In this document: positions 13,707 to 31,569 of the stretch, in pieces
Layout of the letters: the number at the start of each line of letters is the position of its first letter
How positions within the stretch are numbered: the first letter of the stretch is position 1
Source: Candidatus Omnitrophota bacterium
GTDB lineage: Bacteria > Omnitrophota > Gorgyraeia > Duberdicusellales > 4484-171
Direction: 5' to 3'
Length of the DNA stretch: 64,000 bases
NCBI GenBank assembly: GCA_037146775.1
Contig: JBAWWL010000003.1
Coordinates: 66,334-130,333, forward strand
Position numbers and translations under genes: made by a program
Notes under the pieces: model-generated
Told to the model about the DNA's origin: nothing
What the model saw: the letters and a program-made list of their open reading frames with translations, nothing else
Database searches by the model: none

Positions 13707-13712
13707 CAAATC

Positions 13713-17252: not shown

Positions 17253-17315
17253 AAATTAGTCTTTGCTGTATATTTTGACTATCAATGACTACTAATGACC
17301 ATTGAAGATAATTGT

Positions 17316-17344
17316 TGACAGTCATGGATGTGTTGATATAATGC
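17316..17344 (+). promoter_or_regulatory. sigma70-like promoter (TTGACA-N16-TATAAT)
   Basis: ttgacagtcatggatgtgttgatataat gives a consensus -35 and a consensus -10, upstream of the structured element and the HTH/pse genes. Confidence 0.5.
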
Positions 17345-17462
17345 TTGAAAAATAAGGTATATTATTCCACTAAGTTCAAGTTGCTAATGAAACGCGTTAG
17401 AAACAATATAAGAGTATCGGTTTTCCTGGAAAACTGCTTGCATCAAAATAGTACAAGCAAAA

Positions 17463-17574
17463 TTCGGGATTACCTCGGCAAAATCACGATGAAATCTATC
17501 GATTTCATCTGCCGACCTTTCAGGCAGATTTTTTCTGCCTCGCTTTTGCGAGGCGAACAAAATCTGGGATTATA
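17463..17574 (+). repeat. palindromic hairpin element D (nested inverted repeats, flanked by GGGATTA direct repeats), 5' leader of the HTH gene
   Basis: Outer stem TCGGCA/TGCCGA encloses the perfect palindrome GATGAAATC-TATC-GATTTCATC. A second hairpin GCCTCGC-TTTT-GCGAGGC follows. It is related to element E at 54497-54596. Confidence 0.6.
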
Positions 17575-17813
17575 TGGAAATTAAGCCTAACGAAGTTTAT
17601 ACTACCGAAGAAGCTAGAAAACTGCTTAAAATAAGCCCTTCTACGACTATGCGTCTCATCAAAAAAGGCATTCTTCAGGCTGCAAAAGTTGGGAAACAAT
17701 ACCGCATTATGGGCAAAGAGTTATTGCGTCTTCTATCGCCACAGCTCGAAGATACTGTTGGTAAAGCTTATAATAAAGGCAGACAGTGGTTGCATGAAGA
17801 TGTGGATAAATAA
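17574..17813 (+). CDS. helix-turn-helix DNA-binding protein (excisionase/MerR-type HTH_17-like)
   Basis: TTEEARKLLKISPSTTMRLIKKGILQAAKVGKQYRI is the typical small excisionase-family HTH domain. Confidence 0.55.
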   Translation: MEIKPNEVYTTEEARKLLKISPSTTMRLIKKGILQAAKVGKQYRIMGKELLRLLSPQLEDTVGKAYNKGRQWLHEDVDK

Positions 17814-17853
17814 GCATATTTATGAGATATAGGTTTATAAAGAAAGAAGGAGA

Positions 17854-18843
17854 ATGGTTATGAAAGACTTATTCAAAGATAAAGTAGTACTTATCACCGG
17901 CGGTACCGGTTCGTTTGGTAAGAAATTTACCGAGATTGTCTTAAAAAATTATAAACCCAAGAAACTTATCATTTTCAGTCGTGATGAGATGAAGCAGTAT
18001 GAAATGAGCAAAATTTTTAATCAAGAAAATATCCGTTATTTTGTCGGCGATGTGCGCGATGCAGATAGGCTTCATCGTGCACTTAACAGAGTCAATATTA
18101 TTGTACATGCTGCAGCTTTAAAAATAGTTCCTACCGCAGAGTATAATCCTTTTGAAGCCGTCAAAACAAATGTTATTGGCGCCGAAAACGTTATAAACAT
18201 GGCGATCGATAATGGTATCGAAAAGGTGATTGCTTTAAGCACAGATAAAGCAGCTAACCCCATAAATCTTTATGGAGCCACTAAGCTTTGCGCAGAGAAA
18301 ATGTTTGTTGCCGCTAATAATTATTCTCCACTTGGTACAAAATTTAGCGTGGTGCGTTACGGTAATGTTTTTGGTTCGCGTGGCAGCGTTGTGCCATTTT
18401 TTAAAGAATGTAAAAAGAAAGGTGTAGTACCCATAACTGATAAGCACATGACAAGATTTTGGATAACGCTTGAACAGGGAGTGGATTTTGTGCTTCAATC
18501 ATTGAAAGATATGAATGGTGGTGAGATATTTGTTCCTAAGATATCCAGCATGAAAGTCGTCGATTTAGCAAAAGCAATATGTCCAGAATGTAAGCAGGAA
18601 ATAGTCGGTATTCGCGCGGGAGAAAAACTTCATGAAACTCTGGTGCCTAAGGATGACGGCATACATACTTACGAATATGGCGACAGATTTATTACTTATC
18701 CTTATGTCGTTTTGCATAAAAATAAAAAAGATGGCGGTAAGCCCTTAGGTTTAAATTTTGATGGATACAGAAGCGATAATAATACCAAATGGCTTTCTGT
18801 CGAGCAGTTGAGGCAGATGGTGGAGAACGATGCCAAAACTTGA
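17854..18843 (+). CDS. pseB: UDP-N-acetylglucosamine 4,6-dehydratase (inverting), PseB/CapD-like
   Basis: VLITGGTGSFGKKF...KKLIIFSRDEMKQYEM...FVGDVRD is highly characteristic of PseB/FlaA1. Confidence 0.8.
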   Translation: MVMKDLFKDKVVLITGGTGSFGKKFTEIVLKNYKPKKLIIFSRDEMKQYEMSKIFNQENIRYFVGDVRDADRLHRALNRVNIIVHAAALKIVPTAEYNPFEAVKTNVIGAENVINMAIDNGIEKVIALSTDKAANPINLYGATKLCAEKMFVAANNYSPLGTKFSVVRYGNVFGSRGSVVPFFKECKKKGVVPITDKHMTRFWITLEQGVDFVLQSLKDMNGGEIFVPKISSMKVVDLAKAICPECKQEIVGIRAGEKLHETLVPKDDGIHTYEYGDRFITYPYVVLHKNKKDGGKPLGLNFDGYRSDNNTKWLSVEQLRQMVENDAKT

Positions 18844-20089
18844 AGTTATTCCTTATGGCCGGCAATCCATTGATGAAAAAGATATTAGGGTAGTCATTGA
18901 TGTTTTAAGATCTGATTGGCTCACTCAAGGCCCAAAGATAAAAGAATTTGAATCAGCGCTTTGCCAGTATACAGGCGCTAAGTATGCAGTAGTGGTTTCA
19001 AATGGTACAGCAGCGCTGCATCTTGCTTGCCTTGCCGCTGGTATCGGTAAGGGCGATCGGGTTATTACTTCTCCCATAACCTTTGCCGCTTCGGCAAACT
19101 CTATTCTTTATGCAGGTGGCACGCCGGTTTTTATCGACGTAGACCAAGAGATTGTCAATATCAGTCCAGAAAAGATTCAACATTACATAGAACATACCAA
19201 CATAAAACTTAACAACAAACTTAAGGCCATCATTCCTGTCCATTTTGCCGGTTACCCTTGCGAGATGGAAAAAATTTACCAGATAGCCAAAAAATATAAC
19301 TTAATTATCATTGAAGACGCAGCGCATGCTTTAGGCGCAAAATATAAAATTAACGAATTAACGGGTTCACTGGTTAAAGAATTTAATAAGAAAAACAAAG
19401 AAAAATGGATAAAAATAGGTAGTTGTCAACACTCCAATATGACTATCTTTAGTTTTCATCCGGTAAAATCTATTACTACTGGTGAAGGAGGAGCAGTTTT
19501 AACTAATAATAAAGAATTATATGAAAAACTTCTGATGTTACGTAATCACGGGATTACCCGTAATCATAAGAAATTCGTTAATCCGTTAATGCGCAAATCC
19601 GTTAATCCTTTATGGTATTATGAAATGCAGATGCTCGGGTTTAATTACCGTATCACCGATATTCAGGCGGCATTAGGAATCTCTCAGCTTAAAAAATTAG
19701 ACACATTTATAACAAAACGGCACCATATTGCGCAAGTTTACGATAAGGCCTTTAGATGTAACCCATATTTTACAATTCCTACCGAGCGAGAATATTTGTA
19801 TTCAGCATATCATCTTTATCAAATACGTCTTAATGACAAACTCATGATACAAAAAACAAATATATTTCGCGAACTGATTAAGCAGGGGATACGAACACAA
19901 GTGCACTATATCCCAGTTTATCTGCACCCGTATTATCAGCAACGCAACTTCAAGAAAGGTTTGTGTCTTCAGGCGGAAGATTTTTATAAAAGAGAAATAA
20001 GTTTACCTATTTATCCAACTTTGAATATTAAGCAAACAAAATATATAATTAATAATCTTTTAAGTATATGCAAAAAATATAATGGATAA
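18830..20089 (+). CDS. pseC: UDP-4-amino-4,6-dideoxy-N-acetyl-beta-L-altrosamine transaminase, PseC-like (DegT family)
   Basis: IPYGRQSIDEKDIRVVIDVLRSDWLTQGPK N-terminus typical of PseC, with DegT motifs. It carries an internal ~40-aa insertion relative to typical PseC. Confidence 0.75.
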   Translation: MPKLEVIPYGRQSIDEKDIRVVIDVLRSDWLTQGPKIKEFESALCQYTGAKYAVVVSNGTAALHLACLAAGIGKGDRVITSPITFAASANSILYAGGTPVFIDVDQEIVNISPEKIQHYIEHTNIKLNNKLKAIIPVHFAGYPCEMEKIYQIAKKYNLIIIEDAAHALGAKYKINELTGSLVKEFNKKNKEKWIKIGSCQHSNMTIFSFHPVKSITTGEGGAVLTNNKELYEKLLMLRNHGITRNHKKFVNPLMRKSVNPLWYYEMQMLGFNYRITDIQAALGISQLKKLDTFITKRHHIAQVYDKAFRCNPYFTIPTEREYLYSAYHLYQIRLNDKLMIQKTNIFRELIKQGIRTQVHYIPVYLHPYYQQRNFKKGLCLQAEDFYKREISLPIYPTLNIKQTKYIINNLLSICKKYNG

Positions 20090-21734
20090 AATCGTTTTAG
20101 GAACAGCACAATTTGGCATGAATTATGGCATTAATAATACACGAGGCAAAATTCCGCCCTCCGAGGTTGCTGTAATAATAAAAAAAGCTGTCGAACACAA
20201 TATTAATATACTTGATACCGCTTGGGATTATGGTATAGCTGAGGCAGTTATAGGCAAGATCATAAAACAATATGATCTTAGGCTAAGGATTATATCAAAA
20301 TTTCCTGTCTGTAAACAACCGCAAGTAAAAATGTTTTTGGCCTCTTCTCTAAAGACATTACGGTGCCAGTCTTTGTATGGATATCTGTTGCATGATTTCC
20401 AAGCCTATCAGAAAGATAAAAATATTTGGCAGGAATTGTTACGTCTTAAGCAAAACGGAAAAATAAAAAAAATAGGCTTTTCTCTTTATTACCCTTCTGA
20501 TCTATATAGCATTTTCAAAGACAATATAAAAGTTGATATTATTCAAATTCCTTTCAATGTCTTTGATCAACGATTTAAGCCATATCTAGCAGAGCTTAAA
20601 AAAAGGAACATAGAAATTTATGCCCGGTCTGTATTTTTACAAGGATTAATATTTAAAAAATCTTCTGAATTGAATGATTCTTTCGAACCCTTGCAGAAAA
20701 AAGCAGATGTTTTGTCTGCTCTGTCCGATAAACTGGACATTCCACTTCTTGCAATATGCCTTAATTTTGTAATTGGGCAAAAACTAATTGATAAAGTTAT
20801 AGTGGGTGTTGATAGTTCAGAACATTTGAGTGAGATACTGCTGGCACAGAATTATTTTTCCAAAATAGCAAGTATTACTCCTCAGCTTGAACAATTAGCG
20901 GTAAACGAGGAAAAAATAATACTTCCTGTCAACTGGAAAGATACACATAAGGCCGAACATAAAGAAAAAGTTATTGCTATTATTCAGGCGCGTACGAGTT
21001 CTACGCGTCTTGCAGCAAAAGTACTACTTAATTTGGAAGGCAAAACAGTTTTGGAACACGTAATAGAAAGAGTAGAGCAGGCAAAATTAGTTGATGAAGT
21101 AATTGTAGCTACCACTTTTGACAAGAATGATTTAAAACTAGTTGATGTTTGTTCGCAAAGAGGAACTCGTGTGTTTTGTGGTTCGCGAGACGACGTTTTA
21201 GACCGTTATTATCAAGCTGCCCGGCTAACCAATCCGACTCACGTCGTTAGAATTACGGCAGACTGCCCGATTATAGACCCAAAAGTTATTGATGAAACCA
21301 TTGCTGTACATTTAGCTAAAAAAGTAGATTATACGGGTAACAGAACAGAAAGTATGGGTTTTCCCGACGGCCAAGACGTAGAGGTTTTTAAGTTCGAAGC
21401 CCTAGAGAAAGCCTGGCGAGGTGCGAGGTTATCATCTGAGCGTGAACATGTTACTCCCTACATCAAGAATCATCCGGAATTATTTAAATTCGGATATCAC
21501 AATTGTTTTACCAATCTTTATCATAAGAGATGGACGCTAGATAGAGAAGATGATTTTCTATTTATAAAATTACTATATAAGAAGCTTTACAGGAAAAATA
21601 ATTTTTTTGGTATGAAAGAAATATTAAGTTTACTTAAAGAACATCCAGAATACGAAAAGATCAATGATTGGATATTATTAAATGAGGGATATATTAAATC
21701 TTTACGGGAAGATAAGATTGTAAAGACAGATTAA
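20082..21734 (+). CDS. fusion protein: N-terminal aldo/keto reductase plus C-terminal SpsF/PseF-like cytidylyltransferase (CTP_transf_3)
   Basis: AKR signature LGTAQFGMNYG...LDTAWDYG in residues 1 to ~280. The C-terminal half reads IIQARTSSTRLAAKVLLNLEGKTVLEHVIERV, typical of SpsF/FlmC/PseF cytidylyltransferases. Confidence 0.65.
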   Translation: MDKIVLGTAQFGMNYGINNTRGKIPPSEVAVIIKKAVEHNINILDTAWDYGIAEAVIGKIIKQYDLRLRIISKFPVCKQPQVKMFLASSLKTLRCQSLYGYLLHDFQAYQKDKNIWQELLRLKQNGKIKKIGFSLYYPSDLYSIFKDNIKVDIIQIPFNVFDQRFKPYLAELKKRNIEIYARSVFLQGLIFKKSSELNDSFEPLQKKADVLSALSDKLDIPLLAICLNFVIGQKLIDKVIVGVDSSEHLSEILLAQNYFSKIASITPQLEQLAVNEEKIILPVNWKDTHKAEHKEKVIAIIQARTSSTRLAAKVLLNLEGKTVLEHVIERVEQAKLVDEVIVATTFDKNDLKLVDVCSQRGTRVFCGSRDDVLDRYYQAARLTNPTHVVRITADCPIIDPKVIDETIAVHLAKKVDYTGNRTESMGFPDGQDVEVFKFEALEKAWRGARLSSEREHVTPYIKNHPELFKFGYHNCFTNLYHKRWTLDREDDFLFIKLLYKKLYRKNNFFGMKEILSLLKEHPEYEKINDWILLNEGYIKSLREDKIVKTD

Positions 21735-21737
21735 AAT

Positions 21738-23048
21738 ATGGGGAAAGGCCAGAAATTATATAAAGAAGCAAAAAGAATAATTCCTGGGGGGACACAGCTC
21801 CTTTCCAAGAGGCCGGAAATGTTGTTGCCGGATCTTTGGCCGGCTTATTACAGTAAGGCTCGGGGTTGTGAAGTCTGGGACTTGGATAATAACAAATATA
21901 TAGATATGAGCTATATGGGTATTGGCTCGTGCATATTAGGATATGCCGATAAAGATGTAAATAAAGCGGTTAAGCAAGCCGTTAATAACGGTAGTATGTC
22001 TACCCTCAACGCTCCCGAAGAGGTTGAATTGGCTAAGCTTCTTTGTGGGCTTCATCCCTGGGCTCGTATGGTGCGATACGCGCGTTGTGGTGGTGAATCT
22101 ATGGCTATTGCCGTTAGAATTGCCCGTGCTGCAGCCAAAAAAGACGTGATTTTATTTTGTGGGTATCATGGTTGGCATGATTGGTATTTGGCAGCAAATT
22201 TAGCTTCAAACCAAGCGCTTAATGGCCATCTTATTGCTGGCTTAAACCCTTTAGGTGTACCCAGAAAACTAAAAGGAACATCTTATCCTTTTAAATATAA
22301 TGATACAGAAAGTTTTTTAAGGCTGGTTGATAAGTACAGAAATAAAATTGGCGTTATAATAATGGAGCCCATAAGAAGCCAAGAGCCCGATGAAAAATTT
22401 ATTCAAACTATTAACAAGATTGCCAAAGATTTAAAGGCGGTATTAGTGATAGATGAAATAACCGCCGGGTTTAAGCTTACTACTGGAGGAGCGCATTTAT
22501 TGTTCGGTTTAGAGCCGGACATTGCAGTATTTGCTAAGGCCATGAGTAATGGTTTTCCTATGGCCGCGATAATTGGGAAGGAAAAAATAATGCAAGTAGC
22601 CCAAGAAACTTTTATCAGTAGCACTTATTGGACTGACAGAATCGGTCCGGTAGCGGCTTTGGCGACTATCAAAAAAATACAAAAAAATAAAGTTCCGCAG
22701 TATTTAATAAAAATTGGAAAAGAAATGAGAGAAGGATGGAAAAAGCTTGCGCTTTGTCATGGGCTCAAACTTGAATTCTCCGGAATATTGCCTTTGGGCC
22801 ATTTTTCTTTCCAACACGAAAATCCCATTGTTTTGAAAACTCTTTTTACTCAACTCATGCTTGAAGAGGGTTTTCTTGCTACCACTGCATTTTTTGCTTC
22901 TTATTCCCACAAGGAGGAGCACATGGAGAAATATTTTAATGCTGTTGATAAAGCCTTTAGTTTTCTTAGTAGGGCGATAAAGGAAGGCAACCCCAAAAGA
23001 TATTTAAAAGGTCCCGTTTGTCATAGCGGTTTTCAAAGATTAACCTAA
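21738..23048 (+). CDS. class III PLP aminotransferase (glutamate-1-semialdehyde aminomutase-like)
   Basis: Class-III aminotransferase architecture (LLFGLEPDIAVFAKAMSNGFPMAAIIG lysine region). It is embedded between pse genes. Confidence 0.7.
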   Translation: MGKGQKLYKEAKRIIPGGTQLLSKRPEMLLPDLWPAYYSKARGCEVWDLDNNKYIDMSYMGIGSCILGYADKDVNKAVKQAVNNGSMSTLNAPEEVELAKLLCGLHPWARMVRYARCGGESMAIAVRIARAAAKKDVILFCGYHGWHDWYLAANLASNQALNGHLIAGLNPLGVPRKLKGTSYPFKYNDTESFLRLVDKYRNKIGVIIMEPIRSQEPDEKFIQTINKIAKDLKAVLVIDEITAGFKLTTGGAHLLFGLEPDIAVFAKAMSNGFPMAAIIGKEKIMQVAQETFISSTYWTDRIGPVAALATIKKIQKNKVPQYLIKIGKEMREGWKKLALCHGLKLEFSGILPLGHFSFQHENPIVLKTLFTQLMLEEGFLATTAFFASYSHKEEHMEKYFNAVDKAFSFLSRAIKEGNPKRYLKGPVCHSGFQRLT

Positions 23049-23061
23049 AAAAGTCTAGCAC

Positions 23062-23916
23062 ATGCCAGTTAAATTTATAGCTGAAGTTTCTAGTAACCAC
23101 AACAAAGATTTAAAGCGTTGCCTAAGATTTATTGATGTAGCAGCAAAAATAGGCTGTGATGCGGTAAAATTCCAGTTATTTAAAATAGAAAGGCTTTTTG
23201 CGTCAGAGGTTTTAAAGAAGAATAAAGATATTCAAAAAAGAAAACAATGGGAATTACCTATTGGTTTTTTACCCCGCCTATACAAACGAAGCAAAAAAAT
23301 AGGATTGCAATTTGGCTGCACACCATTTTATATGGAGGCAGTAGACGAGCTAAAGCCGTACGTAGACTTTTACAAGATATCGTCTTATGATTTATTGAGG
23401 CTAGATTTAATCAAAGCGTGTGGATTAACAGGTATTCCGGTAATTCTGTCAACGGGAATGGCAAACATGGCAGAAATAAAAGAAGCTGTTGATGCCTTGC
23501 GTTTAGTTAAAACCAAAGATATTTCGTTGCTCCATTGCGTGTCAAATTACCCCACTTTAGTAAAAGATTGTAATTTAGCTGTGATTAATACCTTAAGGGA
23601 TAAATTTAGATGTAAAGTAGGCTGGTCCGACCATACGGTGTCAGATATTGTTTTATTTCGGGCAGTTTATACATGGAATGCCGAAATTATTGAATTTCAT
23701 TTCGATTTAGATACTAAAGGAAGAGAATTTAATATTGGACATTGTTGGTTGCCTGAGCAAATTTCCTCAGTAATTAAAAAAATAAAAGAAGGACAATTTG
23801 CTGACGGAAAAGGCGTTAAGGAGCCGAAAGTCTGTGAGTTACGAGAAAGAAACTGGCGGGCAGATTATCACGATGGTCTAAGGCCTTTAATGGAAACACG
23901 CAAGAGATTGAAATAA
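23062..23916 (+). CDS. NeuB/PseI/SpsE-family nonulosonic acid synthase (short form lacking the C-terminal SAF domain)
   Basis: FIAEVSSNHNKDLKRCLRFIDVAAKIGCDAVKFQLFK matches the NeuB N-terminal TIM-barrel. At 284 aa it is shorter than the ~340-aa NeuB/PseI, which carry the antifreeze-like domain. Confidence 0.7.
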   Translation: MPVKFIAEVSSNHNKDLKRCLRFIDVAAKIGCDAVKFQLFKIERLFASEVLKKNKDIQKRKQWELPIGFLPRLYKRSKKIGLQFGCTPFYMEAVDELKPYVDFYKISSYDLLRLDLIKACGLTGIPVILSTGMANMAEIKEAVDALRLVKTKDISLLHCVSNYPTLVKDCNLAVINTLRDKFRCKVGWSDHTVSDIVLFRAVYTWNAEIIEFHFDLDTKGREFNIGHCWLPEQISSVIKKIKEGQFADGKGVKEPKVCELRERNWRADYHDGLRPLMETRKRLK

Positions 23917-23924
23917 TAATTAGT

Positions 23925-24050
23925 GGAGTCTCGCGGACTAAAGTCCATGGCTCCCTACTGAGCAGAAATCTCAAAAGAGCATTCATTCCCCGGGTTCGCC
24001 GCCAAAGGCGGCAGGCCCGAGGATTTCTGCGAAGGATTAAAACACCCGCT
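23925..24050. repeat. GC-rich intergenic hairpin region (GCCGCC-AAA-GGCGGC) between the synthase and pseG-like genes
   Basis: A local GC-rich island in an AT-rich genome, with a perfect 6-bp stem and a shared CTGCGAAGG-like motif also seen in elements C and E. Confidence 0.4.
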
Positions 24051-24054
24051 TTTG

Positions 24055-25086
24055 ATGAAAAAAACAATAATTATCCGCTGTGACGGAGATTCGCAAGTTG
24101 GATTGGGGCATATTTATCGCTGTATTGCTCTTGCTGATGAGCTTCGAAAAACCTATAGATGTAAGATAATATTTGCGTTGATAAGAGGAAAAGAGGGTAT
24201 AGATTTAATTAAACAAGCACATTATTTCTTAGAGAAAAAACCTTTAAATATTAATGAAGAAAACTGGCTTAATACAATTATCAAACAATATGCACCCAGC
24301 ATTTTAATCTTTGATATTCGTACAGATCTTTCACGAGCGGCTCTTGAGGGTTGGCGTAATAGCAAAATGTTAACCGTTATTATAGACGATACGAGCTCAC
24401 GGCGTCTTGCTGGCAATTTAGTTTTTTGTCCGCCCGTTAGGCAAATAAAAAAATTAGATTGGAAAAATTTTAAAGGTAAATTATATACAGGCTGGAAATG
24501 GGTAATATTAAGAAAAGAGTTTGCCAAGAATTATCCAAAACGTATTAATAAAATACCACAGGTATTAGTCACTATGGGTGGCAGCGATCCACAGGCAATG
24601 ACACTCAAGACAATTAAAGCATTAGATTTTTTACGAGACAATTTTAATACGGTTGTCGTATTGGGTGCTGGATTCAAGCGCAACAAAGAATTACGCGTAT
24701 TACTATATAAAGCATATCGGCCGTTTGTGATTAGAAGAAATGTAAAAAATATAGCACAAATTATGTCAAAGGTTGATTTAGCCGTTGCTTCTTTTGGGGT
24801 AACGGCGTATGAGCTCGCGGCAATAAAGGTTCCGGCTATATATCTGTGTCTGACAAAAGACCACGCGCAGTCTGCAAAAACTTTTACTAATACCGGTATG
24901 GCCATATCGGTAGGGGTGCATAATAAGGTGCAAGAACAATTATTAGCGAAAAAAGTGCATCTCTTGCTGCGAGAAAAAATAGCTAGAGATAAAATGAAAA
25001 GCCGATGTTATAAAAAGATAGACGCCCAGGGCGCAGAACGTATTGCTGCTGTTATCATAAATGCTGTGGAGGCTACTTATGGGTGA
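24055..25086 (+). CDS. pseG: PseG-like UDP-2,4-diacetamido-2,4,6-trideoxy-hexose hydrolase (GT28-like fold)
   Basis: IIIRCDGDSQVGLGHIYRCIALADEL matches the PseG N-terminal signature (RxDxxxxxGxGHxxR). The C-terminal half is MurG-like. Confidence 0.65.
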   Translation: MKKTIIIRCDGDSQVGLGHIYRCIALADELRKTYRCKIIFALIRGKEGIDLIKQAHYFLEKKPLNINEENWLNTIIKQYAPSILIFDIRTDLSRAALEGWRNSKMLTVIIDDTSSRRLAGNLVFCPPVRQIKKLDWKNFKGKLYTGWKWVILRKEFAKNYPKRINKIPQVLVTMGGSDPQAMTLKTIKALDFLRDNFNTVVVLGAGFKRNKELRVLLYKAYRPFVIRRNVKNIAQIMSKVDLAVASFGVTAYELAAIKVPAIYLCLTKDHAQSAKTFTNTGMAISVGVHNKVQEQLLAKKVHLLLREKIARDKMKSRCYKKIDAQGAERIAAVIINAVEATYG

Positions 25087-25993
25087 TACAAAATCTTGGA
25101 AGAAGCATAAAGGTTGTTTATTGGATTCCGAAAAAGGGTTTGATGTTATAGATTGTTTAACTTGCGGTTTTAAGCACATTATTCCTATACCCACTTTCAA
25201 TGAATTAAAATCTGTTTATCGTCACCAATATTATACTCTTGAAAAACCATTATATTTAGAGCGCCACAGAGAAGACTTAGATTGGTGGAATTTGGTATAT
25301 AGCGAGCGTTACGATATTTTTGAAAAAGAATTATCTCTTAAGCACCGCATGATCTTAGATATAGGTTCAGGTCCGGGTTTTTTTCTTTTACATGGTAAGC
25401 AGCGCGGATGGGAAACGTTAGGTATTGAGCCATCTAAAAAAGCTGCTATGCATAGTAAGGAATTAGGGCTAAACATTCGAGAAGATTTCTTGACAAAAAA
25501 AACTGCTAAACAATTAGGTAAATTTGACGTAGTTCATCTTAGCGAGGTTATTGAGCATATTTCTGATCCTAAGGGGCTTTTGTGTTTAGTAAGAAGCATA
25601 TTGAATCCAGGAGGGCTTATTTGTGTTGTTGCGCCTAACGACTACAATCCCTTTCAGTATGTTTTAAGAAAGGCGTGTGGTTTTAAGCCTTGGTGGGTTG
25701 CCCCACCGCACCATATAAATTATTTTGATTTTGATTCTTTAAGTAAATTATTAAAGAATAGCGGATTTAAAATAATTTCTTGCGAAGCCACCTTTCCTAT
25801 AGATATTTTTCTTTTGATGGGAGATAATTATGTTAATAATGAGGTGCTTGGGAGACAGTGCCATACTAAGCGTAAACAATTTGAGCTAAATTTATGCAAA
25901 GCTGGTATGAAAAGTATTTATAAAAAACTATATCAACGATTAGCGGAAATGAAGATTGGACGCGAAATCGTAGTTTATGGTCGCAAGGTTTGA
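25079..25993 (+). CDS. class I SAM-dependent methyltransferase with a zinc ribbon
   Basis: CLTCGFKH ribbon and motif I LDIGSGPGFF. The ATG at 25079 gives an ATGA overlap with the pseG stop. Confidence 0.7.
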   Translation: MGDTKSWKKHKGCLLDSEKGFDVIDCLTCGFKHIIPIPTFNELKSVYRHQYYTLEKPLYLERHREDLDWWNLVYSERYDIFEKELSLKHRMILDIGSGPGFFLLHGKQRGWETLGIEPSKKAAMHSKELGLNIREDFLTKKTAKQLGKFDVVHLSEVIEHISDPKGLLCLVRSILNPGGLICVVAPNDYNPFQYVLRKACGFKPWWVAPPHHINYFDFDSLSKLLKNSGFKIISCEATFPIDIFLLMGDNYVNNEVLGRQCHTKRKQFELNLCKAGMKSIYKKLYQRLAEMKIGREIVVYGRKV

Positions 25994-26081
25994 AAGAGAC
26001 ATGGGAGTGGTCAAGCTCCATAATTTTTATTCGATTTTTTTCTGATGACAGGGATAGGCGTCGGTAAAGAGGAGAAATAGT

Positions 26082-27293
26082 ATGATGCAAAGTATCCCGC
26101 CAACCAGTAGAGAATGTTTTATCTGCGCGAGTTCTGAGCAAGAAGTAATTGAAGATTTCCTAGGAGCCGCCTTGTTTGTTATGGATGATTTTTATTCAAT
26201 TGATATTAAAAAAGTTCTTTGTAAACAATGTGGACTAATTTATGCGTCACATTATTTAGGTGTTGAGCATCTTGAGCGGTTGTATGTATCTATGAATGCT
26301 GGGCCGGAGAATCTCACCTATCGTTTTAGTGCGGCGCCTGATTATAATCAGTTTTTTGTAGATTCTTTGACAAAAATGTTTCCTAACAGACGAAGAAGGG
26401 TATTAGATGTTGGGTGCGGAAGGTGCCAAACCCTCGATCGTTTTAAATCTCTCGGCTGGGAAACGTACGGTGTCGATATTTCTCCACTTAGCCAGGATTT
26501 AGCTAAGAAGAAAGGACATTCGGTATGGTGTGGGGCATTTCAAGATATAGATTTTGGAGACATCCAATTTGAGGCCATTCTTTTTGAAGAATCACTGGAG
26601 CACATGTTGAATCCTAACTTTGTTTTAGAACGGGTCAATGAGTTATTAACGGATAGCGGGTTGATTGGAGTATCTTTGCCGGAATCGTATACATGTTTGA
26701 AGAGTAAGAATCTTTATGATATCTTACGAGACGATCATTGCAATCATTTCACCCCCGTTACTATTCGTAAATTGCTTACTTCAAAAGGACTGTACCCACT
26801 AGATATGTATTTAGATGTGGACGCGCCACTTCCTGATATGAAAGTAATAGCGTCTAAAAAACCAGTTTTTTCTTTATTAGTGGAAGGTTTTGAGGAAAAG
26901 CGTGATTTCTCACGAGAGGCCATGCAGTTATACTGGAAGATGAAGCAGGGCTTACGCGATGTTTTTTCAAAGGAGACATCCGGTTATAAACGAATCGTCG
27001 TCTATTGCGCCGGATCTTACGCAACGATTGTCTTGCCGGTTATCTGGGGAGATTATTCGAAGCGAGTAACGGCCTTTATTGATAATGATCTGCGAAAGTA
27101 CGGCAAGAGTCTTTACAATAAGCCAGTCTTACCTTCCCGGGATTTGAAAGATTTGAATCCGGACTGTATTGTCATTGCTAGTGAACAGTTTGAGAATGAA
27201 ATTTGTGGCAATATTTCTGAAGACATGCAAAGCGTTAAAATAATTAAAGCGCACCATTTTTTAAAAGACGTATTAAGTCAAATGGTAATTTGA
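26082..27293 (+). CDS. NDP-hexose C-methyltransferase-like protein (TylCIII/NovU architecture: Zn-binding domain, methyltransferase domain, C-methyltransferase C-terminal domain)
   Basis: N-terminal CFIC...CKQCG ribbon and motif I LDVGCGRCQT. C-terminal ~150 aa read RIVVYCAGSYATIVLPV...AFIDNDLRKYGKSLYNKPVLPSRDL...PDCIVIASEQFENEI, matching the pattern of the C-methyltransferase C-terminal domain (G.G..., D.N..K.G, PD..LI..W....EI). Confidence 0.5.
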   Translation: MMQSIPPTSRECFICASSEQEVIEDFLGAALFVMDDFYSIDIKKVLCKQCGLIYASHYLGVEHLERLYVSMNAGPENLTYRFSAAPDYNQFFVDSLTKMFPNRRRRVLDVGCGRCQTLDRFKSLGWETYGVDISPLSQDLAKKKGHSVWCGAFQDIDFGDIQFEAILFEESLEHMLNPNFVLERVNELLTDSGLIGVSLPESYTCLKSKNLYDILRDDHCNHFTPVTIRKLLTSKGLYPLDMYLDVDAPLPDMKVIASKKPVFSLLVEGFEEKRDFSREAMQLYWKMKQGLRDVFSKETSGYKRIVVYCAGSYATIVLPVIWGDYSKRVTAFIDNDLRKYGKSLYNKPVLPSRDLKDLNPDCIVIASEQFENEICGNISEDMQSVKIIKAHHFLKDVLSQMVI

Positions 27294-27316
27294 AGAGTTA
27301 GGGGGAGGCACTAATT

Positions 27317-28480
27317 ATGTTCCATAAATTTTTTTCAGACAATGAACTTGGTTTTTGGCGATTTTATTGCAATACAAAGATTTTTTTCGGGAGAGGCGAG
27401 GTCTTTAAAATATTGAGAGAAATTGTTAACTCTTTCGGTGGAAAAATCGGGGTTTTGACCGACGAGAATGTTAATCGACTGCATTTTACCGAAAATTTTC
27501 TAGCGGCGGTTCAAGACCAAATTAGCTCTGTACATTTTGCGGGGCGTGAAGCGAATTATTCGGATATCGAAAAAGTCGTTACGGCATTTAGGAAGTCGGA
27601 CGTTAAAACGATAATGGCAATCGGTGGTGGCAGCGTTTTAGATTCCGCAAAAGTCGCATCTGTGCTTGTGAACAATCCTATGGATATTACGGCTCTTCAT
27701 AATGTTTCTGAATTGGAGAATCCCAGAGTGCCATTGATAGCCATTCCGACTACGTTTGGAACCGGTTCGGAAGTGAATATGTATGCAGTTGTCAATAATG
27801 AATCGAACACGTTACGGACGTCAATTAAAAATTTTTTTTTAACTCCCGATATTGCGATTATTAATCCAGATGTTGCCAAGGAGACCCCAGTATCTCTAAA
27901 GTATGAGGTTGGCATTGACGCGTTTGTACATGCGCTTGAAGTTTTGACTTTAAAGCGAGAAATTTCTCCAGTTCAAATACCATTGATGAGATCAGCTATG
28001 GACCTATTCTTCCGGCATTTCAAAAATTATGTTGAGAATCCCCACGATGAAGACGAAGAGGCCATAGCCACCGCTTCTATTATAGCGGGAATTGGAGTTA
28101 ATAATTCTCGTTCAGGACTCATCCACTCCCTCGCGAATAAGTTTGCTAAACACCAGTGGTGTTCGCACCCGGTTTCTCTTATTCCTTTCATTTTACCTTG
28201 CTTGAGATTAAACTGGAGCTACGATCGAAAATATTTTCAAGACATGCCCTGGCAGGATTTCTATCGGCAAATGAAGGAAAGGATTTTATTTAGGCCCGCA
28301 GAAGAATTGTCTTGTCTTGCTATCAGTAAAGACATGATAGACGTTATGGCAGAAGAATGTTTAACGGATACTGTGATTCTAAAAGAGAATCCAGTCATTT
28401 TGAGCAAGCAGGTATTCAAGTTACTCTATGAGCAGGCATTATGTCTTGGCGGAAATATAAACTCTTGCCATGAAAGTTAA
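27317..28480 (+). CDS. iron-containing alcohol dehydrogenase family protein (DHQS/Fe-ADH superfamily)
   Basis: MAIGGGSVLDSAKV glycine-rich NAD(P)-binding motif of Fe-ADHs, plus the metal-binding His region. Confidence 0.65.
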   Translation: MFHKFFSDNELGFWRFYCNTKIFFGRGEVFKILREIVNSFGGKIGVLTDENVNRLHFTENFLAAVQDQISSVHFAGREANYSDIEKVVTAFRKSDVKTIMAIGGGSVLDSAKVASVLVNNPMDITALHNVSELENPRVPLIAIPTTFGTGSEVNMYAVVNNESNTLRTSIKNFFLTPDIAIINPDVAKETPVSLKYEVGIDAFVHALEVLTLKREISPVQIPLMRSAMDLFFRHFKNYVENPHDEDEEAIATASIIAGIGVNNSRSGLIHSLANKFAKHQWCSHPVSLIPFILPCLRLNWSYDRKYFQDMPWQDFYRQMKERILFRPAEELSCLAISKDMIDVMAEECLTDTVILKENPVILSKQVFKLLYEQALCLGGNINSCHES

Positions 28481-28727
28481 AAAAATACTTTTATTAGATT
28501 CCCCGTTTGTGCATTTTATGGGCGAAACGCAGCCGAGTGTGCCTTTAGGGCTGGCTTATCTTGCTGCTGTTTTGTTGAAGTTGGATCTTGAGGTAGCGGT
28601 TTACAATACAGATCTTGAACATCGTTCCGTAGTCATTGAAAGTGGCAAAAGATTTTTTGATGAAATATCGGCTTTCAATCAATACAGGGACGCGATCACT
28701 AATACGGAGCACTATTTATATAAATAA
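28470..28727 (+). pseudogene. 85-aa remnant resembling the N-terminal B12-binding region of the downstream radical SAM gene
   Basis: ILLLDSPFVHFMGETQPSVPLGLAYLAAVLLKLDLEV parallels IILIEPPISRPKDETVGIAAEVPMALVSLAATLLKRNHEV of the 28965 gene. It is followed by ~220 bp of non-coding sequence. Confidence 0.4.
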
Positions 28728-28964
28728 GTTTTTTATCGATCAATGTTCAGATGATAATTAAAAACAAAAATATTCCAGATCAAGAAATCAAGATTATAAA
28801 AAATGAGACAAAGAAGGAACTTTTAGATGAATTATCGCAGTATTCTTGCGTGAATTTTTATCAAAAGGCTAGTGACGATCCTAAAGGCCCGGAGATTTTG
28901 TCGAATCCCTGATCATTTTTGACTTATACCGGTCGAAGAATATTTTGTGGAGAAAGTTAACTCG

Positions 28965-30467
28965 ATGAGAATAATATTAATTGAACCGCCAATTAGCCGG
29001 CCTAAAGATGAAACAGTGGGGATCGCAGCGGAGGTTCCTATGGCCCTAGTTTCACTTGCCGCTACGCTTTTAAAAAGAAATCACGAAGTACATATTATCG
29101 ATGCCTTTGCTGAGGGGTATTTCGAGAGGACTATTCGAGATAAGAATAGTATGTATATTGGTCTTACCTTTGAAGACATTTTACAAAGAATTTTAAATTT
29201 CCGTGCAGACATTGTCGGAATTTCTTCAATATTTTTCTTTAATGCGCCAGTCGTCGTTGAGCTTGCTAACTTTCTTAAAGAACGCTGCCCAAATTTACAA
29301 ATTATTTTGGGTGGAATTGTCCCCGGGGTGCTATACCAAAAAATAATGAAGGAGAAAGGTGTGGATTTTATCGTGAGGGGGGAGGGAGACCATATTTTAC
29401 CCGATCTCGCAGAGAACATCAAAAATCCCGCCAAGGTACACGGCATTATTTGGCGCAAGGGGGCAAAAATTATCATAAATGAGGATGTGCCATTGCCTGA
29501 AGATCTGGATCAGTTACCTTTTCCTGCACGCGAACTATCTGATTTAGACCTTTACATCAAACTGGACAAGCCATTTGGATTTGTAAAAGAGAGAAAACGG
29601 TTTACAACGATATTAACTTCAAGGGGATGTCCTTTTTCTTGCGCTTTTTGTTCCGCTCATTTGGTACACGGGAAAAAAATTAGGTATCGCTCACCAGAAA
29701 ATGTTCTCATGGAGATTGATGAGCTGGTACAGAATTACGGAATCAATGAGGTGCATATCATTGATGAAAACTTCTCTTTAGACAAGTCACGCGCCATGAA
29801 AATAATGAACGGTTTAATTATGCGAGGTTATAATAAATTTCTTTCGTGGACCTGTCCAAACGGTCTCTTTGTCAAGTCTTTAGACGAGGAAGTAATAGAT
29901 AAGATGCAAGAAAGCAATTGCATTTCGGTGGCGTTGGCTGTTGAGAGCGGAAATCACGACGTCTGCAAAAATATGGTGAGAAAACCAGTTGATCATAAGC
30001 AAGTCGAAAGGGTTGTCAGGTATTTTAAAGAGCATACGGATATTCTTTTATGTGGATATTTCATTATAGGCTTTCCGGGAGAAACAAAAAAACAGGTAAT
30101 TGAAACATTTAACTTTGCGAATAAATTACAAATGCATAATGCTACAATTAGTATTTTAATGCCGTATCCATTCACGGATATTTACAATATTGCCTTGAGA
30201 GATGGATATCTTATTTTGGATGAAACGGATGAGTATTTTTCAAACCTGATGCCTAAACATGGTGTTATTAAGACCAATGAATTTGACCCATCGTGGCTTA
30301 AGGCAATCCAAGAAACCGATCGTTTCTTGGCACTTTTGAAAAAGAAGAAGAAGACTTTTTGGAGATTATGCTGGGAACTGATTTTTCGAGTCCATTGGAT
30401 GCTACCACGGGTTGCAGTGATGATTATTTATCACGCGATTAAAGGGGATATTTCGGGGAAAAAATGA
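28965..30467 (+). CDS. B12-binding domain radical SAM protein (class B rSAM)
   Basis: N-terminal cobalamin-binding Rossmann-like region, then the CxxxCxxC cluster (SRGCPFSCAFCS). The ATG at 28965 is preferred over the GTG at 28947. Confidence 0.75.
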   Translation: MRIILIEPPISRPKDETVGIAAEVPMALVSLAATLLKRNHEVHIIDAFAEGYFERTIRDKNSMYIGLTFEDILQRILNFRADIVGISSIFFFNAPVVVELANFLKERCPNLQIILGGIVPGVLYQKIMKEKGVDFIVRGEGDHILPDLAENIKNPAKVHGIIWRKGAKIIINEDVPLPEDLDQLPFPARELSDLDLYIKLDKPFGFVKERKRFTTILTSRGCPFSCAFCSAHLVHGKKIRYRSPENVLMEIDELVQNYGINEVHIIDENFSLDKSRAMKIMNGLIMRGYNKFLSWTCPNGLFVKSLDEEVIDKMQESNCISVALAVESGNHDVCKNMVRKPVDHKQVERVVRYFKEHTDILLCGYFIIGFPGETKKQVIETFNFANKLQMHNATISILMPYPFTDIYNIALRDGYLILDETDEYFSNLMPKHGVIKTNEFDPSWLKAIQETDRFLALLKKKKKTFWRLCWELIFRVHWMLPRVAVMIIYHAIKGDISGKK

Positions 30468-30708
30468 ATCTTTTGGCTTTTTCTTTTGACTACAAAATTG
30501 TCAATTTTTTCTTATGAAAAAAGATTATTTCGATGCGGCTGCGTTTATTCTTAGGAAGCAAAAGATGAGTTTATGTTCGTTGTTTGATTGGGAGTGTGCC
30601 TATCTATTGGTGTTATCCATATTAGTTTAATCGATACGCAAAAATCTTTGGTCTTTAGCCCGTGGAAATTCATTTGAAGGAAAGAAAAATTTTGAGATAG
30701 ATATTTAT

Positions 30709-31569
30709 TTGGTGGGTGGAGATAGCGACTTGAATAAAAAACAAATAAAATTCCTGCAAAGACTCGCGTCGGAAATAAGGACATATATTATTCGAATGAA
30801 TTGTTATGCGAATTCCGGACATCCTGGTGGGGCTTTGTCGTCGGCAGAAATCATTACTTATCTTTTTCATAAAGAGCTTAATTTTTCCCTATGTAATTAC
30901 CGGGATCCAGAGCGAGACCGGTTTATTCTGTCCAAGGGGCATTCTTGCATGGTTTTGTATGCGGCTCTGGCGCAGAAGGGTTTTTTTGGAATAGAGGAAT
31001 TTAGGAAATTACGCAAAGTTAATAGTATACTTCAGGGGCATCCTGATCGATTGAAGACCCCGGGCGTTGAGTTTAATTCCGGTTCTTTAGGCCAAGGATT
31101 TTCGTTTGCTCTTGGTTGTGCATTAGGTGGAAAACTTACTATGAAAAAATTTAGGGTTTATGTGCTACTTGGCGATGGGGAGTTAAACGAAGGCCAAGTG
31201 TGGGAAGGTTTTATGTTCGGCGCATTTTATAAATTAGATAATTTAGTTGCTATTGTAGATTATAATAAATATCAAAGCGATGATTTGTGCTCCAATGTTA
31301 CTGCACTTGAGCCCTTGGCTGATAAATTTAAAGCATTTGGTTGGAATGTATTGAGGATTAATGGACATAATTTTAAAGAAATTGCCAGAGCCTTCAGAAA
31401 CGCAAAAAACAGGAAAGGTAAGCCGACGGTTATTTTGGCCGACACCATTAAAGGTAAGGGGATATCTTTTATGGAAAATAATCCAAAATGGCATGGGAGC
31501 CTTGCTCCTCAGGGCGAAGAAAAGAAATGTGCTTTTCAAGAATGCGGTTGCGACGATATTAATCTATGA
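30709..31569 (+). CDS. transketolase, N-terminal (TPP/PP-domain) subunit
   Basis: SGHPGGALS, LGDGELNEGQVWE, and the GxxG TPP-binding motifs. A non-ATG (TTG/GTG) start is needed to retain the conserved N-terminus. Confidence 0.8.
   Translation: MVGGDSDLNKKQIKFLQRLASEIRTYIIRMNCYANSGHPGGALSSAEIITYLFHKELNFSLCNYRDPERDRFILSKGHSCMVLYAALAQKGFFGIEEFRKLRKVNSILQGHPDRLKTPGVEFNSGSLGQGFSFALGCALGGKLTMKKFRVYVLLGDGELNEGQVWEGFMFGAFYKLDNLVAIVDYNKYQSDDLCSNVTALEPLADKFKAFGWNVLRINGHNFKEIARAFRNAKNRKGKPTVILADTIKGKGISFMENNPKWHGSLAPQGEEKKCAFQECGCDDINL

Follow-up and report, generated by a model that had tools for sequence, protein, structure and literature searches.

Organization of the gene cluster

The DNA stretch analysed here, referred to as the window, comprises 64,000 nucleotides (nt) of contig JBAWWL010000003.1 (positions 66,334 to 130,333 of the forward strand) from a metagenome-assembled genome (MAG) of a Candidatus Omnitrophota bacterium (GCA_037146775.1); nt numbers below are those of the window. 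It carries a gene cluster that probably specifies a CMP-activated, heavily modified nonulosonic acid (NulO) of the pseudaminic acid (Pse) type. An initial annotation, made from the sequence, had described nt 17854–30467 as a gene set for a hypermodified Pse-type sugar; this gist was right, but the most informative genes lie beyond these coordinates. From about nt 17315 to 36470 the genes form a single co-directional unit, of which nt 17854–30467 represent the first two-thirds, since all genes are on the + strand, start and stop codons overlap at seven junctions, and one perfect promoter is located at nt 17315. Past nt 30467 the unit continues to about nt 36470 with genes for a split transketolase, a short-chain dehydrogenase/reductase (SDR), an ATP-grasp ligase and a GH57-like protein.

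The promoter-like site (nt 17315–17342, + strand) is of the sigma-70 type, TTGACA-16-TATAAT with a TG (extended -10), and lies in a gap of 600 nt upstream of the module; it is the sole 12/12 match between nt 17000 and 36900 and likely marks the transcription start of the unit. Promoter-like sites as a whole were not more numerous than in shuffled sequences, only the perfect site at nt 17315 standing out. Terminator-like sites numbered 17 versus 13.7 ± 3.7 in shuffles, with none strong in the intergenic gaps of the block; with such sites at the shuffle level, a split of the block by an internal terminator or promoter was rejected.

Genes of the core cassette

Gene identities were assigned by Pfam and NCBIfam profile scans, with the curated cutoffs of TIGR models quoted for each model. 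The first gene, at nt 17854–18843, encodes PseB, an inverting UDP-GlcNAc 4,6-dehydratase (TIGR03589, 495.8 bits, cutoff 407.75; Pfam Polysacc_synt_2), and the second, at nt 18830–20089, PseC, a DegT-type UDP-4-keto-6-deoxy-AltNAc 4-aminotransferase (TIGR03588, 509.6 bits, cutoff 423.5). They are followed by a single open reading frame (ORF) of 550 aa at nt 20082–21734, in which an aldo/keto reductase (AKR; residues 3–255, with the tetrad D45/Y50/K73/H104 readable in the sequence) is fused to a cytidylyltransferase (CT) of the CTP_transf_3 family (residues 298–478). The CT half is of the SpsF type, scoring 109 bits with CTP_transf_3 and having 6oew as its best PDB match (122.9 bits); with the PseF model TIGR03584, which belongs to the same superfamily, it reached 30.5 bits, below the cutoff of 205.7. 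The gene at nt 21738–23048 encodes a class III pyridoxal phosphate-dependent aminotransferase (PF00202) similar to glutamate-1-semialdehyde (GSA) aminomutase, which served as the marker of the cassette; among proteins of known structure, its relatives comprise GSA aminomutases as well as transaminases or epimerases that form amines in aminoglycoside and polyketide pathways. An identical aminotransferase sequence is annotated in a Ca. Omnitrophota MAG and was also met on a Logan contig.

A NeuB-family phosphoenolpyruvate (PEP)-condensing synthase of 284 aa is encoded at nt 23062–23916. It contains the NeuB domain (PF03102) alone and scored 178.9 bits with the NeuB model and 170.5 bits with that of PseI (TIGR03586, cutoff 340.25), both under the cutoffs. 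Its lack of a C-terminal SAF domain is not due to a frameshift, because only 136 nt remain before the next gene, and alignment with its best PDB match, the 290-aa structural-genomics protein 6ncs, showed that the SDH and HF metal-site motifs are retained. The last gene of the cassette, at nt 24052–25086, encodes a PseG-like GT-B protein, presumably a UDP-sugar hydrolase, that matched positions 2–278 of the 280 positions of TIGR03590 with 135.1 bits, just under the cutoff of 153.55; it is 57% and 44% identical to its counterparts in two of the loci from other genomes described below (L082 and L073, respectively). The initial annotation had recognized pseB, pseC, a NeuB/PseI-family synthase without a C-terminal SAF domain, a PseG-like hydrolase, a CT-AKR fusion and an embedded class III (GSA-like) aminotransferase, and the profile scans bear these out, with the PseG-like protein just under its cutoff.

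Distribution of the core cassette

The class III aminotransferase has more than 8000 relatives, the best 120 of which share 65% to 77% identity and a conserved length of 436 aa. A genome scan located it at no fewer than 584 loci in bacteria and archaea, which span Campylobacterota, Patescibacteria, Chloroflexota, SAR11, Methanosarcinales, DPANN and Asgard archaea. Co-occurrence of genes was scored in the 80 best of these at least 584 loci, by tblastn and clustering of all ORFs, and cassette genes were counted in 40 loci that have at least 6 kb on both flanks. PseB was observed in 29 of the 40, PseC in 28, a NeuB-family synthase in 29 and an SpsF-type CT in 27. An AKR or a Gfo/Idh/MocA oxidoreductase (GFO) was present in 30 (AKR only in 10, GFO only in 15, both in 5), and a PseH-like GNAT in 20, seven of which possess two GNATs.

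The set of seven functions, namely pseB, pseC, AKR, SpsF-like CT, class III aminotransferase, PseG-like protein and NeuB-family synthase, is complete in nt 17854–25086, and the same set is present in L003, L005, L041, L050, L051, L063, L064, L082, L087, L089 and L090. An AKR-CT fusion was also found in L003 and L005. In L090, which is plasmid pSMR1-1 (NZ_CP022416.1) of the cultured bacterium Pseudosulfitobacter pseudonitzschiae, the CT (residues 3–240) is instead fused to the aminotransferase (residues 243–676) in a protein of 677 aa encoded at nt 9275–11308 of L090, amid genes named pseB/pseC and pseG/pseI by PGAP. From these two kinds of fusion, AKR, CT and aminotransferase appear to act as one unit around the CMP-activation step.

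Clusters with this content have been published. In Aeromonas, group I of the flagellar glycosylation islands (FGI) has the order pseB-pseC-AKR-pseF-class III aminotransferase-pseG-(pseH)-pseI, the pseF being SpsF-like, so that the same genes are clustered as here (PMC7874193). The Pse cluster of Vibrio B9-25K2 has after pseC a gene for an AKR fused to an SpsF-like CT, as in the window (PMC7371886), and for the O-antigen clusters of Legionella pneumophila Sg6 and Sg12 the published gene list has PseG along with a "glutamate-1-semialdehyde aminomutase" and a cytidylyltransferase (PMC3694923). In all three reports the AKR and the aminotransferase stand without an assigned function. These clusters differ from the window in being small (7.5–9.5 kb), in lacking the downstream block of methyltransferase, dehydrogenase, radical, transketolase and ATP-grasp genes described below, in the order of the synthase and PseG-like genes, and, for some, in possessing PseH. 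In A. hydrophila AH-1 a Pse derivative of 403 Da has been described (PMC4691044), and a compound whose nominal mass is odd must contain an odd number of nitrogen atoms; the connection of this glycan with the AKR/aminotransferase islands stays a lead only.

Thus, the core is a widespread cassette that has already been described, and "atypical", as it had been called, is overstated for it. Compared with the canonical PseB-C-H-G-I-F pathway of Helicobacter pylori and Campylobacter jejuni, PseB and PseC of the window score as equivalogs, and the later steps fall in the same superfamilies (GT-B PseG-like protein, NeuB family, CTP_transf_3), whereas PseH is missing, the synthase has no SAF domain, an SpsF-type CT joined to AKR takes the place of PseF, and the canonical set is extended by a class III aminotransferase and some ten tailoring genes. 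The pathway was therefore rightly called non-canonical insofar as the canonical Pse5Ac7Ac route is not there (no PseH, no SAF domain, extra enzymes), but its core is not unique, being published in Aeromonas.

Absence of PseH and the SAF-less synthase

The initial annotation had stated that no GNAT PseH is present, and none was detected in the 64-kb window when a hidden Markov model (HMM) of 37 cassette GNATs was searched against the six-frame translation (E ≤ 0.01); Pfam scans of window ORFs of at least 150 aa likewise contained no GNAT. With no PseH in the window, plain Pse5Ac7Ac would not be makeable by the known route. The same HMM detected no cassette-type GNAT in six other loci bearing an ATP-grasp gene, versus 20 of 40 loci of the general cassette.

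SAF-less NeuB proteins form a large separate subfamily: the best 120 homologues of the window synthase are all of 279–308 aa, contain PF03102 only, and share 57% to 75% identity. Contexts were examined in L087, L088 and L089, the last from a complete Pelagibacter genome. All three have PseB, PseC, CT, aminotransferase and AKR, with no GNAT called; L087 and L089 have an ATP-grasp gene, and L088, in which none was called, carries a hexapeptide-repeat acetyltransferase instead. The SAF-less NeuB thus co-occurs with ATP-grasp in five of six loci (the window, L082, L073, L087 and L089, but not L088), and in these contexts no PseH-type GNAT accompanies it. It seems that two flavours of the cassette exist, one with a GNAT and a full-length PseI and the other with ATP-grasp and a SAF-less NeuB, the window belonging to the second. 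The SAF domain in solved NeuB helps to hold the N-acetyl group of the substrate, and its loss would fit a different N-substituent.

Methyltransferase genes

Only two methyltransferase genes, designated MT1 and MT2, are present in nt 17854–30467, not the three Zn-ribbon S-adenosylmethionine (SAM) methyltransferases plus one of the TylCIII type counted previously. MT1 (nt 25061–25993, + strand) adjoins the PseG-like gene and encodes a class I SAM methyltransferase (Methyltransf_23) that is 72%, 55% and 49% identical to its orthologues in L082, L084 and L086, respectively; a single CxxC is conserved among these orthologues. A third methyltransferase, located between the radical SAM and transketolase genes, is present in L086 and missing from the window.

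MT2 (nt 26082–27293) has three domains: the N-terminal one carries four Cys, a SAM domain follows, and the C-terminal one is Rossmann-like. Among 5.8 billion proteins it has four full-length homologues (46% to 53% identity, the window's own copy excluded); the contexts were read on two contigs, L084 from JACRNI010000033.1 and L086 from SRR22388351_81407. The TylCIII architecture that had been proposed for it stands by fold but not by profile. In a Foldseek comparison of its AF2 model (pLDDT 72.5, pTM 0.72) with the PDB, the top 18 matches were the sugar C-3 methyltransferases MtmC, KijD1 and TcaB9, over about 410 columns with E values of 1e-20 to 1e-18 and TM scores of 0.55–0.60, and single-domain methyltransferases came next at E 1e-10. 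PF08421 was not detected in MT2, PF08484 reached 19.0 bits, under its cutoff of 23.5 (one homologue, P0124, has a precomputed weak PF08484 match), and phmmer against the PDB gave no match to TcaB9, KijD1 or MtmC, the relationship being visible by fold comparison only. In the alignment of the five-member family, C12, C15, C47 and C50 as well as D218-H219-x-x-H222-F223 (DHCNHF) are invariant; the latter may be a counterpart of the E-H motif of the TylCIII family.

MT2 therefore shares the three-domain fold, the four-Cys N-terminus and the Rossmann-like C-terminus with TylCIII, TcaB9, KijD1 and MtmC, although identity is only 15% to 18% and these enzymes act on dTDP-4-keto-6-deoxyhexoses in antibiotic, not nonulosonic acid, pathways. 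By analogy with them, MT2 would C-methylate a nucleotide-linked keto-sugar. The obvious candidate substrate is the 4-keto product of PseB, because the family methylates the carbon beside the 4-keto group of a nucleotide-linked 6-deoxyhexose, which the PseB product is. Methylation at the UDP-4-keto stage would extend the skeleton to C10; mass spectrometry (MS) has recently been reported to show a CMP-ulosonic acid of this size, C10, in Magnetospirillum (bioRxiv 10.64898/2026.04.20.719630).

Alcohol dehydrogenase and radical SAM genes

The gene at nt 27317–28480, between MT2 and the radical SAM gene and apart from the aminotransferase, encodes an enzyme of the Fe-dependent alcohol dehydrogenase (Fe-ADH) family (PF00465/PF25137), as annotated previously. 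By sequence it is a generic group III ADH, 51% identical to the orthologue at the same position in L086; its PDB matches include 1,3-propanediol dehydrogenase (109.5 bits) and KdnB (5k8c; 47.6 bits). It had been suggested that the Fe-ADH and the aminotransferase together introduce an amino group, as KdnB and KdnA of Shewanella do in the Kdo8N pathway. This pairing was rejected in view of the absence of Fe-ADH from all 80 sampled aminotransferase loci and by the weak KdnB match; the recurrent redox partner of the aminotransferase is AKR or GFO (30 of 40), and no adjacency of Fe-ADH and aminotransferase was found in the window or in other genomes. The oxidise-then-transaminate logic of Kdo8N may instead fit AKR or GFO plus the class III aminotransferase. 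A scan of metagenome contigs with Fe-ADH gave 53 pattern matches and no relative, so that its context is known from L086 alone. In L084, Zn-ADHs beside an aldolase take its place; from this and its absence at the aminotransferase loci, we place Fe-ADH with the enzymes that would build a carbon unit. An Fe-ADH also takes part in forming the tetronate N-acyl group of Vibrio cholerae O1 perosamine, which would be a precedent. The T9 tract at nt 27832–27840 in this gene, to which attention had been drawn, does exist, but it is unremarkable, since the AT-rich window has 22 A/T runs of at least 8 bases, including three T9, and its reading as a phase-variation signal was rejected.

Directly after Fe-ADH, nt 28464–28721 (+ strand) contain the first 86 codons of a second B12-binding radical SAM (rSAM) gene, designated rSAM-A, whose product is 51% identical (E 2e-22) to residues 1–86 of the 561-aa rSAM that follows Fe-ADH in L086. 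An 85-aa ORF at nt 28470 was rejected as a small gene, being the N-terminus of this lost rSAM. The rest of rSAM-A and the following 435-aa methyltransferase, both present in L086, are absent here (nt 28751–28912 were flagged along with the relic). The intact gene, rSAM-B, lies at nt 28947–30467. Since the relic resembles the rSAM of L086, to which rSAM-B is only 28% identical, the original rSAM and the next methyltransferase appear to have been replaced by a paralogue, and the relic reads as a recombination scar inside the module.

The B12-binding rSAM enzyme noted previously was confirmed in rSAM-B, which matched PF02310 (64.4 bits) and PF04055 (83.6 bits), has the CxxxCxxC motif (read as CPFSCAFC) and is 40% identical to the rSAM of L082. 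Of its assignment as a class B methylase, the B12-binding domain and the rSAM core stood, but not membership of a characterised methylase subfamily: it was under the cutoff of every NCBIfam subfamily, the best being the Sden_1168 P-methyltransferase family (228.8 versus 575). Its best PDB match was AprD4 diol dehydratase (85.6 bits), with TokK at 39.7 bits; rSAM-B may or may not be a methylase. B12-rSAM genes of another cluster, encoding about 430–500 aa, were found inside or beside the cassettes of L002, L005, L009, L046 and L080, which come from Margulisiibacteriota, Planctomycetia, Syntrophaceae, Thermodesulfobacteriota and Falkowbacteria and so span at least five other phyla. They are located between pseC and the AKR/GFO-CT-aminotransferase genes (L002, L009, L080), beside the aminotransferase (L046) or after NeuB (L005). 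A radical step thus seems to be a recurrent option in this pathway family.

Transketolase, ATP-grasp and GH57-like genes and synteny of the block

Beyond rSAM-B, nt 30709–31569 and 31566–32513 encode the two subunits of a split transketolase, the thiamine diphosphate (ThDP)-binding N-terminal subunit (TK_N; PF00456; NF004559, 303.9 bits; 69% and 71% identity with L086 and L073) and the Pyr/C-terminal subunit (TK_C; PF02779 and PF02780; 70% and 71%). Next are a FabG-like SDR (nt 32510–33256; 53% in L086 and 45% in L073), an ATP-grasp carboxylate-amine ligase of the L-amino-acid-ligase type (LAL_C2; nt 33253–34470; 44% to 47% in L086, L084, L073 and L027), and a GH57-like protein of 667 aa (nt 34467–36470; PF03065, 67 bits, residues 29–275), the last of the conserved block. 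All are on the + strand. The GH57-like protein had no NCBIfam match and a weak PDB match to 4-alpha-glucanotransferase (32 bits); homologues of about 650–690 aa close the block in L082 (54%), L084 (44%) and L086 (38%). In L082 the GH57-like gene is followed by a gene for a protein of the Leptospira LIC12162 family.

The most complete counterpart was found in L086, where fliW is followed by genes for PseB, PseC, GFO, NeuB with SAF, CT, aminotransferase, a second GFO and a PseG-like protein, and then, in the order of the window, by MT1 (49%), MT2 (49%), Fe-ADH (51%), the 561-aa B12-rSAM, the 435-aa methyltransferase, TK_N (69%), TK_C (70%), SDR (53%), ATP-grasp (44%) and the GH57-like protein (38%). 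L084 has aminotransferase, GFO, PseG-like protein, MT1 (55%), MT2 (48%), another methyltransferase, two Zn-ADHs on either side of a transaldolase/FSA, ATP-grasp (45%), B12-rSAM (31%) and GH57-like protein (44%). The cassette most similar to that of the window is in L082 (aminotransferase 76%, SAF-less NeuB 75%, PseG-like protein 57%, MT1 72%), which also has an ATP-grasp-like gene, two SDRs and the GH57-like gene, with a B12-rSAM (40%) upstream. L073 possesses a SAF-less NeuB (53%), two ATP-grasp genes, TK_N and TK_C (71%) and an SDR, and L027, from Saccharibacteria, an MT1-like gene, an acetolactate synthase (ALS)-like ThDP enzyme, an SDR and ATP-grasp (44%).

Thus, the tailoring block is rare, but its gene order is kept beside such cassettes in other metagenomic loci, and the recurring theme is the attachment of an enzyme forming C-C bonds (ThDP enzyme or aldolase), dehydrogenases, ATP-grasp and methyltransferases to Pse-type cassettes. 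That the tailoring genes belong to the module, as the initial annotation had it, is borne out by the synteny with L086 and the variants in L084, L082 and L073; separation of these genes from pse genes was not observed in the loci read, with the caveat that the 21 kb of L084 have no PseB, PseC or NeuB. What is new is this rare syntenic block, which joins a TcaB9-fold C-methyltransferase, Fe-ADH and B12-rSAM to a ThDP/SDR/ATP-grasp set resembling the sfm operon of Shewanella; already known is the core cassette, widespread and described without biochemistry.

Comparison with the sfm operon of Shewanella oneidensis

In published domain content and protein sizes, the nearest studied relative is the flagellin-sugar operon sfmABCDE of S. 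oneidensis MR-1, which has pse genes in its neighbourhood and encodes a 290-aa NeuB-domain protein (SfmA), a 581-aa ThDP enzyme (SfmB), a 255-aa SDR (SfmC), a 395-aa SAM methyltransferase (SfmD) and a 412-aa ATP-grasp protein (SfmE) (PMC3765264). The window has the corresponding parts at similar lengths: the SAF-less NeuB (about 290 aa; 284 here), the ThDP enzyme, a FabG-like SDR (about 250 aa), a SAM methyltransferase (about 400 aa) and an ATP-grasp protein (about 410 aa). S. oneidensis has PseB and PseC with no clear PseH, G, I or F, all Sfm proteins are needed for the flagellin glycan, and sfm mutants lose the flagellin NulO glycan (PMC3765264). In a later study SO_3261 (SfmA) was deleted as pseI, and the cytidylyltransferase SO_3269 was described as "much larger than canonical" (10.1101/2023.12.03.569772). 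The window likewise has PseB and PseC, no canonical PseH, I or F, a PseG-like protein just under the PseG cutoff, and an unusually large CT. The two systems differ in that the ThDP enzyme is the ALS-like SfmB in Shewanella and a split transketolase here, the ALS-like form being found in L027; in that the window adds Fe-ADH, B12-rSAM, MT1 and the GH57-like protein; and in location, a flagellar island there versus a lipopolysaccharide (LPS) or surface-glycan locus here, in which Wzx and WaaL-like genes are present. By MS and nuclear magnetic resonance, the Shewanella glycan contains a mono-N-acetyl Pse-like residue (C11H18N2O6, 274 Da) that bears an O-methylated C9-C11H16-20O7 moiety of 236, 250 or 264 Da (PMC3765264).

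Proposed pathway and alternatives

From protein families and synteny, we consider it probable that the unit makes a CMP-activated, heavily modified NulO of the Pse type by the following steps. PseB and PseC, by family-level homology, would convert UDP-GlcNAc to UDP-4-amino-4,6-dideoxy-L-AltNAc, and the PseG-like protein, the SAF-less NeuB-family synthase and the SpsF-type CT would, on the same grounds, carry out release, PEP condensation and CMP activation. At the activation step, AKR, CT and class III aminotransferase may form one functional unit, in which the redox enzyme (AKR, or GFO elsewhere) and the transaminase would most likely replace a hydroxyl of the (CMP-)sugar by an amine, or epimerise it. 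The amine installed by PseC would stay unacetylated, and the ATP-grasp ligase would join a carboxylate to an amine. The split transketolase, SDR and Fe-ADH may build a polyhydroxylated carbon unit for the ligated substituent, MT1 would methylate the substituent or the sugar, MT2 would C-methylate the nucleotide-linked keto-sugar, and the B12-rSAM may add a further radical modification, methylation or dehydration. By analogy with Shewanella sfm, the ATP-grasp/ThDP/SDR set would point to a ligated side chain at least as much as to decoration of the skeleton.

Several observations weigh against this pathway. The PseI, PseF and PseG assignments are all under curated cutoffs, and the nearly equal NCBIfam scores of the synthase (178.9 bits for NeuB versus 170.5 for PseI) do not place it among PseI, NeuB and LegI. 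Among solved structures, rSAM-B is closest to a dehydratase rather than a methylase, and one gene of the block has decayed to a relic, so that the pathway may differ from that of L086. The block of L084 is without PseB, PseC, NeuB and CT within its 21 kb, and the aminotransferase of the window shares only 34% identity with its counterparts in L084 and L086. In Shewanella, in-source loss of the 264-Da part is easy, and the behaviour of the 274-Da part is that of a residue with a free amine (PMC3765264); an amide would explain this less well than a glycosidic or ester linkage, and therefore the role given here to ATP-grasp may be wrong. The Shewanella glycan also has only two nitrogens which, if the class III aminotransferase is present there, disfavours a persisting third amine.

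An alternative that we regard as possible but clearly less probable places the decorations on the nonulosonic skeleton, with an amine introduced by Fe-ADH and aminotransferase in the Kdo8N manner, C-methyl groups by the TylCIII-type enzyme and a class B rSAM, and O-methyl groups by the other methyltransferases. The TcaB9/KijD1/MtmC fold of MT2, with its C-terminal nucleotide-sugar-binding domain kept, makes C-methylation of a UDP- or CMP-linked intermediate plausible, and the C10 CMP-ulosonic acid of Magnetospirillum, the B12-rSAM genes in or beside the cassettes of L002, L009, L080, L046 and L005, and the standing of oxidoreductase and aminotransferase as the most conserved accessory pair would fit as well, as would the two GNATs in 7 of 40 cassettes, which are expected if a third amine is acetylated. 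However, Fe-ADH is not the partner of the aminotransferase, occurring in 0 of 80 loci, not being adjacent to it, and giving way to Zn-ADHs by the transaldolase in L084; KdnB matches it weakly, and the transketolase, the SDR, ATP-grasp and the missing PseH are left unexplained. This alternative and the ligated-side-chain pathway are not exclusive, C-methylation of the skeleton by MT2 being common to both. It is rather doubtful, and somewhat less likely again, that the skeleton itself is enlarged, by an MT2 C-methyl group (6-C-methyl, C10), rSAM methylation, a two-carbon branch added by transketolase and SDR in the manner of YerE/YerF, and a third amine from AKR and aminotransferase, the MT2 step falling at the UDP-4-keto stage and the amination at that of the CMP-sugar. 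Were this so, the pathway would lead to a branched ulosonic acid with three amino groups and a longer carbon chain, of a structurally undescribed kind, and the missing genetics of the Magnetospirillum compound would be supplied.

Two further explanations divide the genes differently. That plain Pse, or a simple derivative of it, is what the pse genes produce while the downstream block modifies another sugar of the same polysaccharide is suggested by the 50-kb glycan locus, with its many unrelated sugar genes (a WbpB/D/E-like trio, GT2, GT4, GT9 and GT-C), and by the block of L084 without PseB, PseC and NeuB. We judge it improbable, because the block adjoins Pse-type cassette genes in L086, L082, L073 and L027, which are of different lineages, because plain Pse5Ac7Ac would not be made by the known route without PseH, and because a SAF-less NeuB is accompanied by ATP-grasp and by the lack of a GNAT; the loss of the flagellin NulO glycan in Shewanella sfm mutants (PMC3765264) also speaks against it. 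The synthesis of CDP-ribitol uses fused reductase-cytidylyltransferases (Bcs1/TarIJ). From this architecture, and from the CT being far under the PseF cutoff (30.5 versus 205.7), it might be supposed that AKR-CT and the aminotransferase make a CDP- or CMP-linked (amino)alditol or similar unit that is then attached to the glycan. Such a role is more improbable still: the CT belongs to CTP_transf_3 (the KdsB/NeuA/PseF/SpsF family) and not to the IspD or TagD types, and it is the sole cytidylyltransferase found in the window, so that without it there would be no CMP-NulO donor. The corresponding CT is also the sole one found in the described group I islands of Aeromonas, where a Pse derivative is attached to the flagellins (PMC7874193).

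On the surfaces and flagella of bacteria and archaea, nonulosonic acids are capping sugars that govern recognition by phages and the immune system, and, to our knowledge, almost all of their enzymology concerns Pse5Ac7Ac, Leg5Ac7Ac and Neu5Ac. The trio of AKR (or GFO), CT and class III aminotransferase, tied together by two independent fusions, represents a large, well-defined and uncharacterised step. The combination of SAF-less NeuB, no PseH and ATP-grasp offers a testable rule that predicts non-acetyl substituents, and in the block there are candidate genes for ulosonic acids with C-methyl groups or longer chains, as well as for the 236–264 Da moiety of Shewanella.

Genes surrounding the module

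The whole window is one long run of genes on the + strand, and the unit sits in an LPS or surface-glycan locus of the Ca. Omnitrophota MAG. Upstream are genes for three GT-C enzymes, a YfhO protein and a WbpB/D/E-like trio, and downstream those for Wzx, a Wzy_C/WaaL-like protein, three GT9, many other glycosyltransferases and an initiating transferase.

Just upstream of pseB, nt 17574–17813 (+ strand) encode a 79-aa HTH_17 (excisionase/MerR-like) protein (PF12728, 50.1 bits), which was also gene-called on a Logan contig and may be a local regulator or mark the junction of a mobile element. Downstream of the GH57-like gene, a GT-B/Epimerase_2-like protein of 507 aa (nt 36483–38006, + strand) matched PF02350 (28 bits) and TIGR04396 (33.8 bits) weakly. 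It is tentatively proposed as a candidate transferase for the finished sugar but may not belong to the module, and it was not conserved in the related loci. As listed, this ORF and that of Wzx (nt 37912–39480) overlap by 95 nt, and the start of Wzx is probably further downstream.

Four large membrane proteins are encoded in series at nt 8946–17252, three of them PMT_2/ArnT-like GT-C enzymes and one of the YfhO family, with a four-Cys methyltransferase at nt 10634. This region has the lowest G+C content of the window (0.32–0.34) and a negative AT skew; in L083, similar GT-C genes adjoin the aminotransferase. An AAA_14/DUF4143 ATPase gene is located amid the sugar genes at nt 4505–5836. Near the start of the window, an enzyme of the sugar-nucleotide dehydratase/epimerase family (Pfam GDP_Man_Dehyd) is encoded at nt 376–4226 in a group with a Gfo/Idh/MocA oxidoreductase, a DegT aminotransferase and an acetyltransferase of the hexapeptide type, a set that by sequence is WbpB/WbpD/WbpE-like and would serve a second, di-N-acetylated sugar in the same glycan locus.

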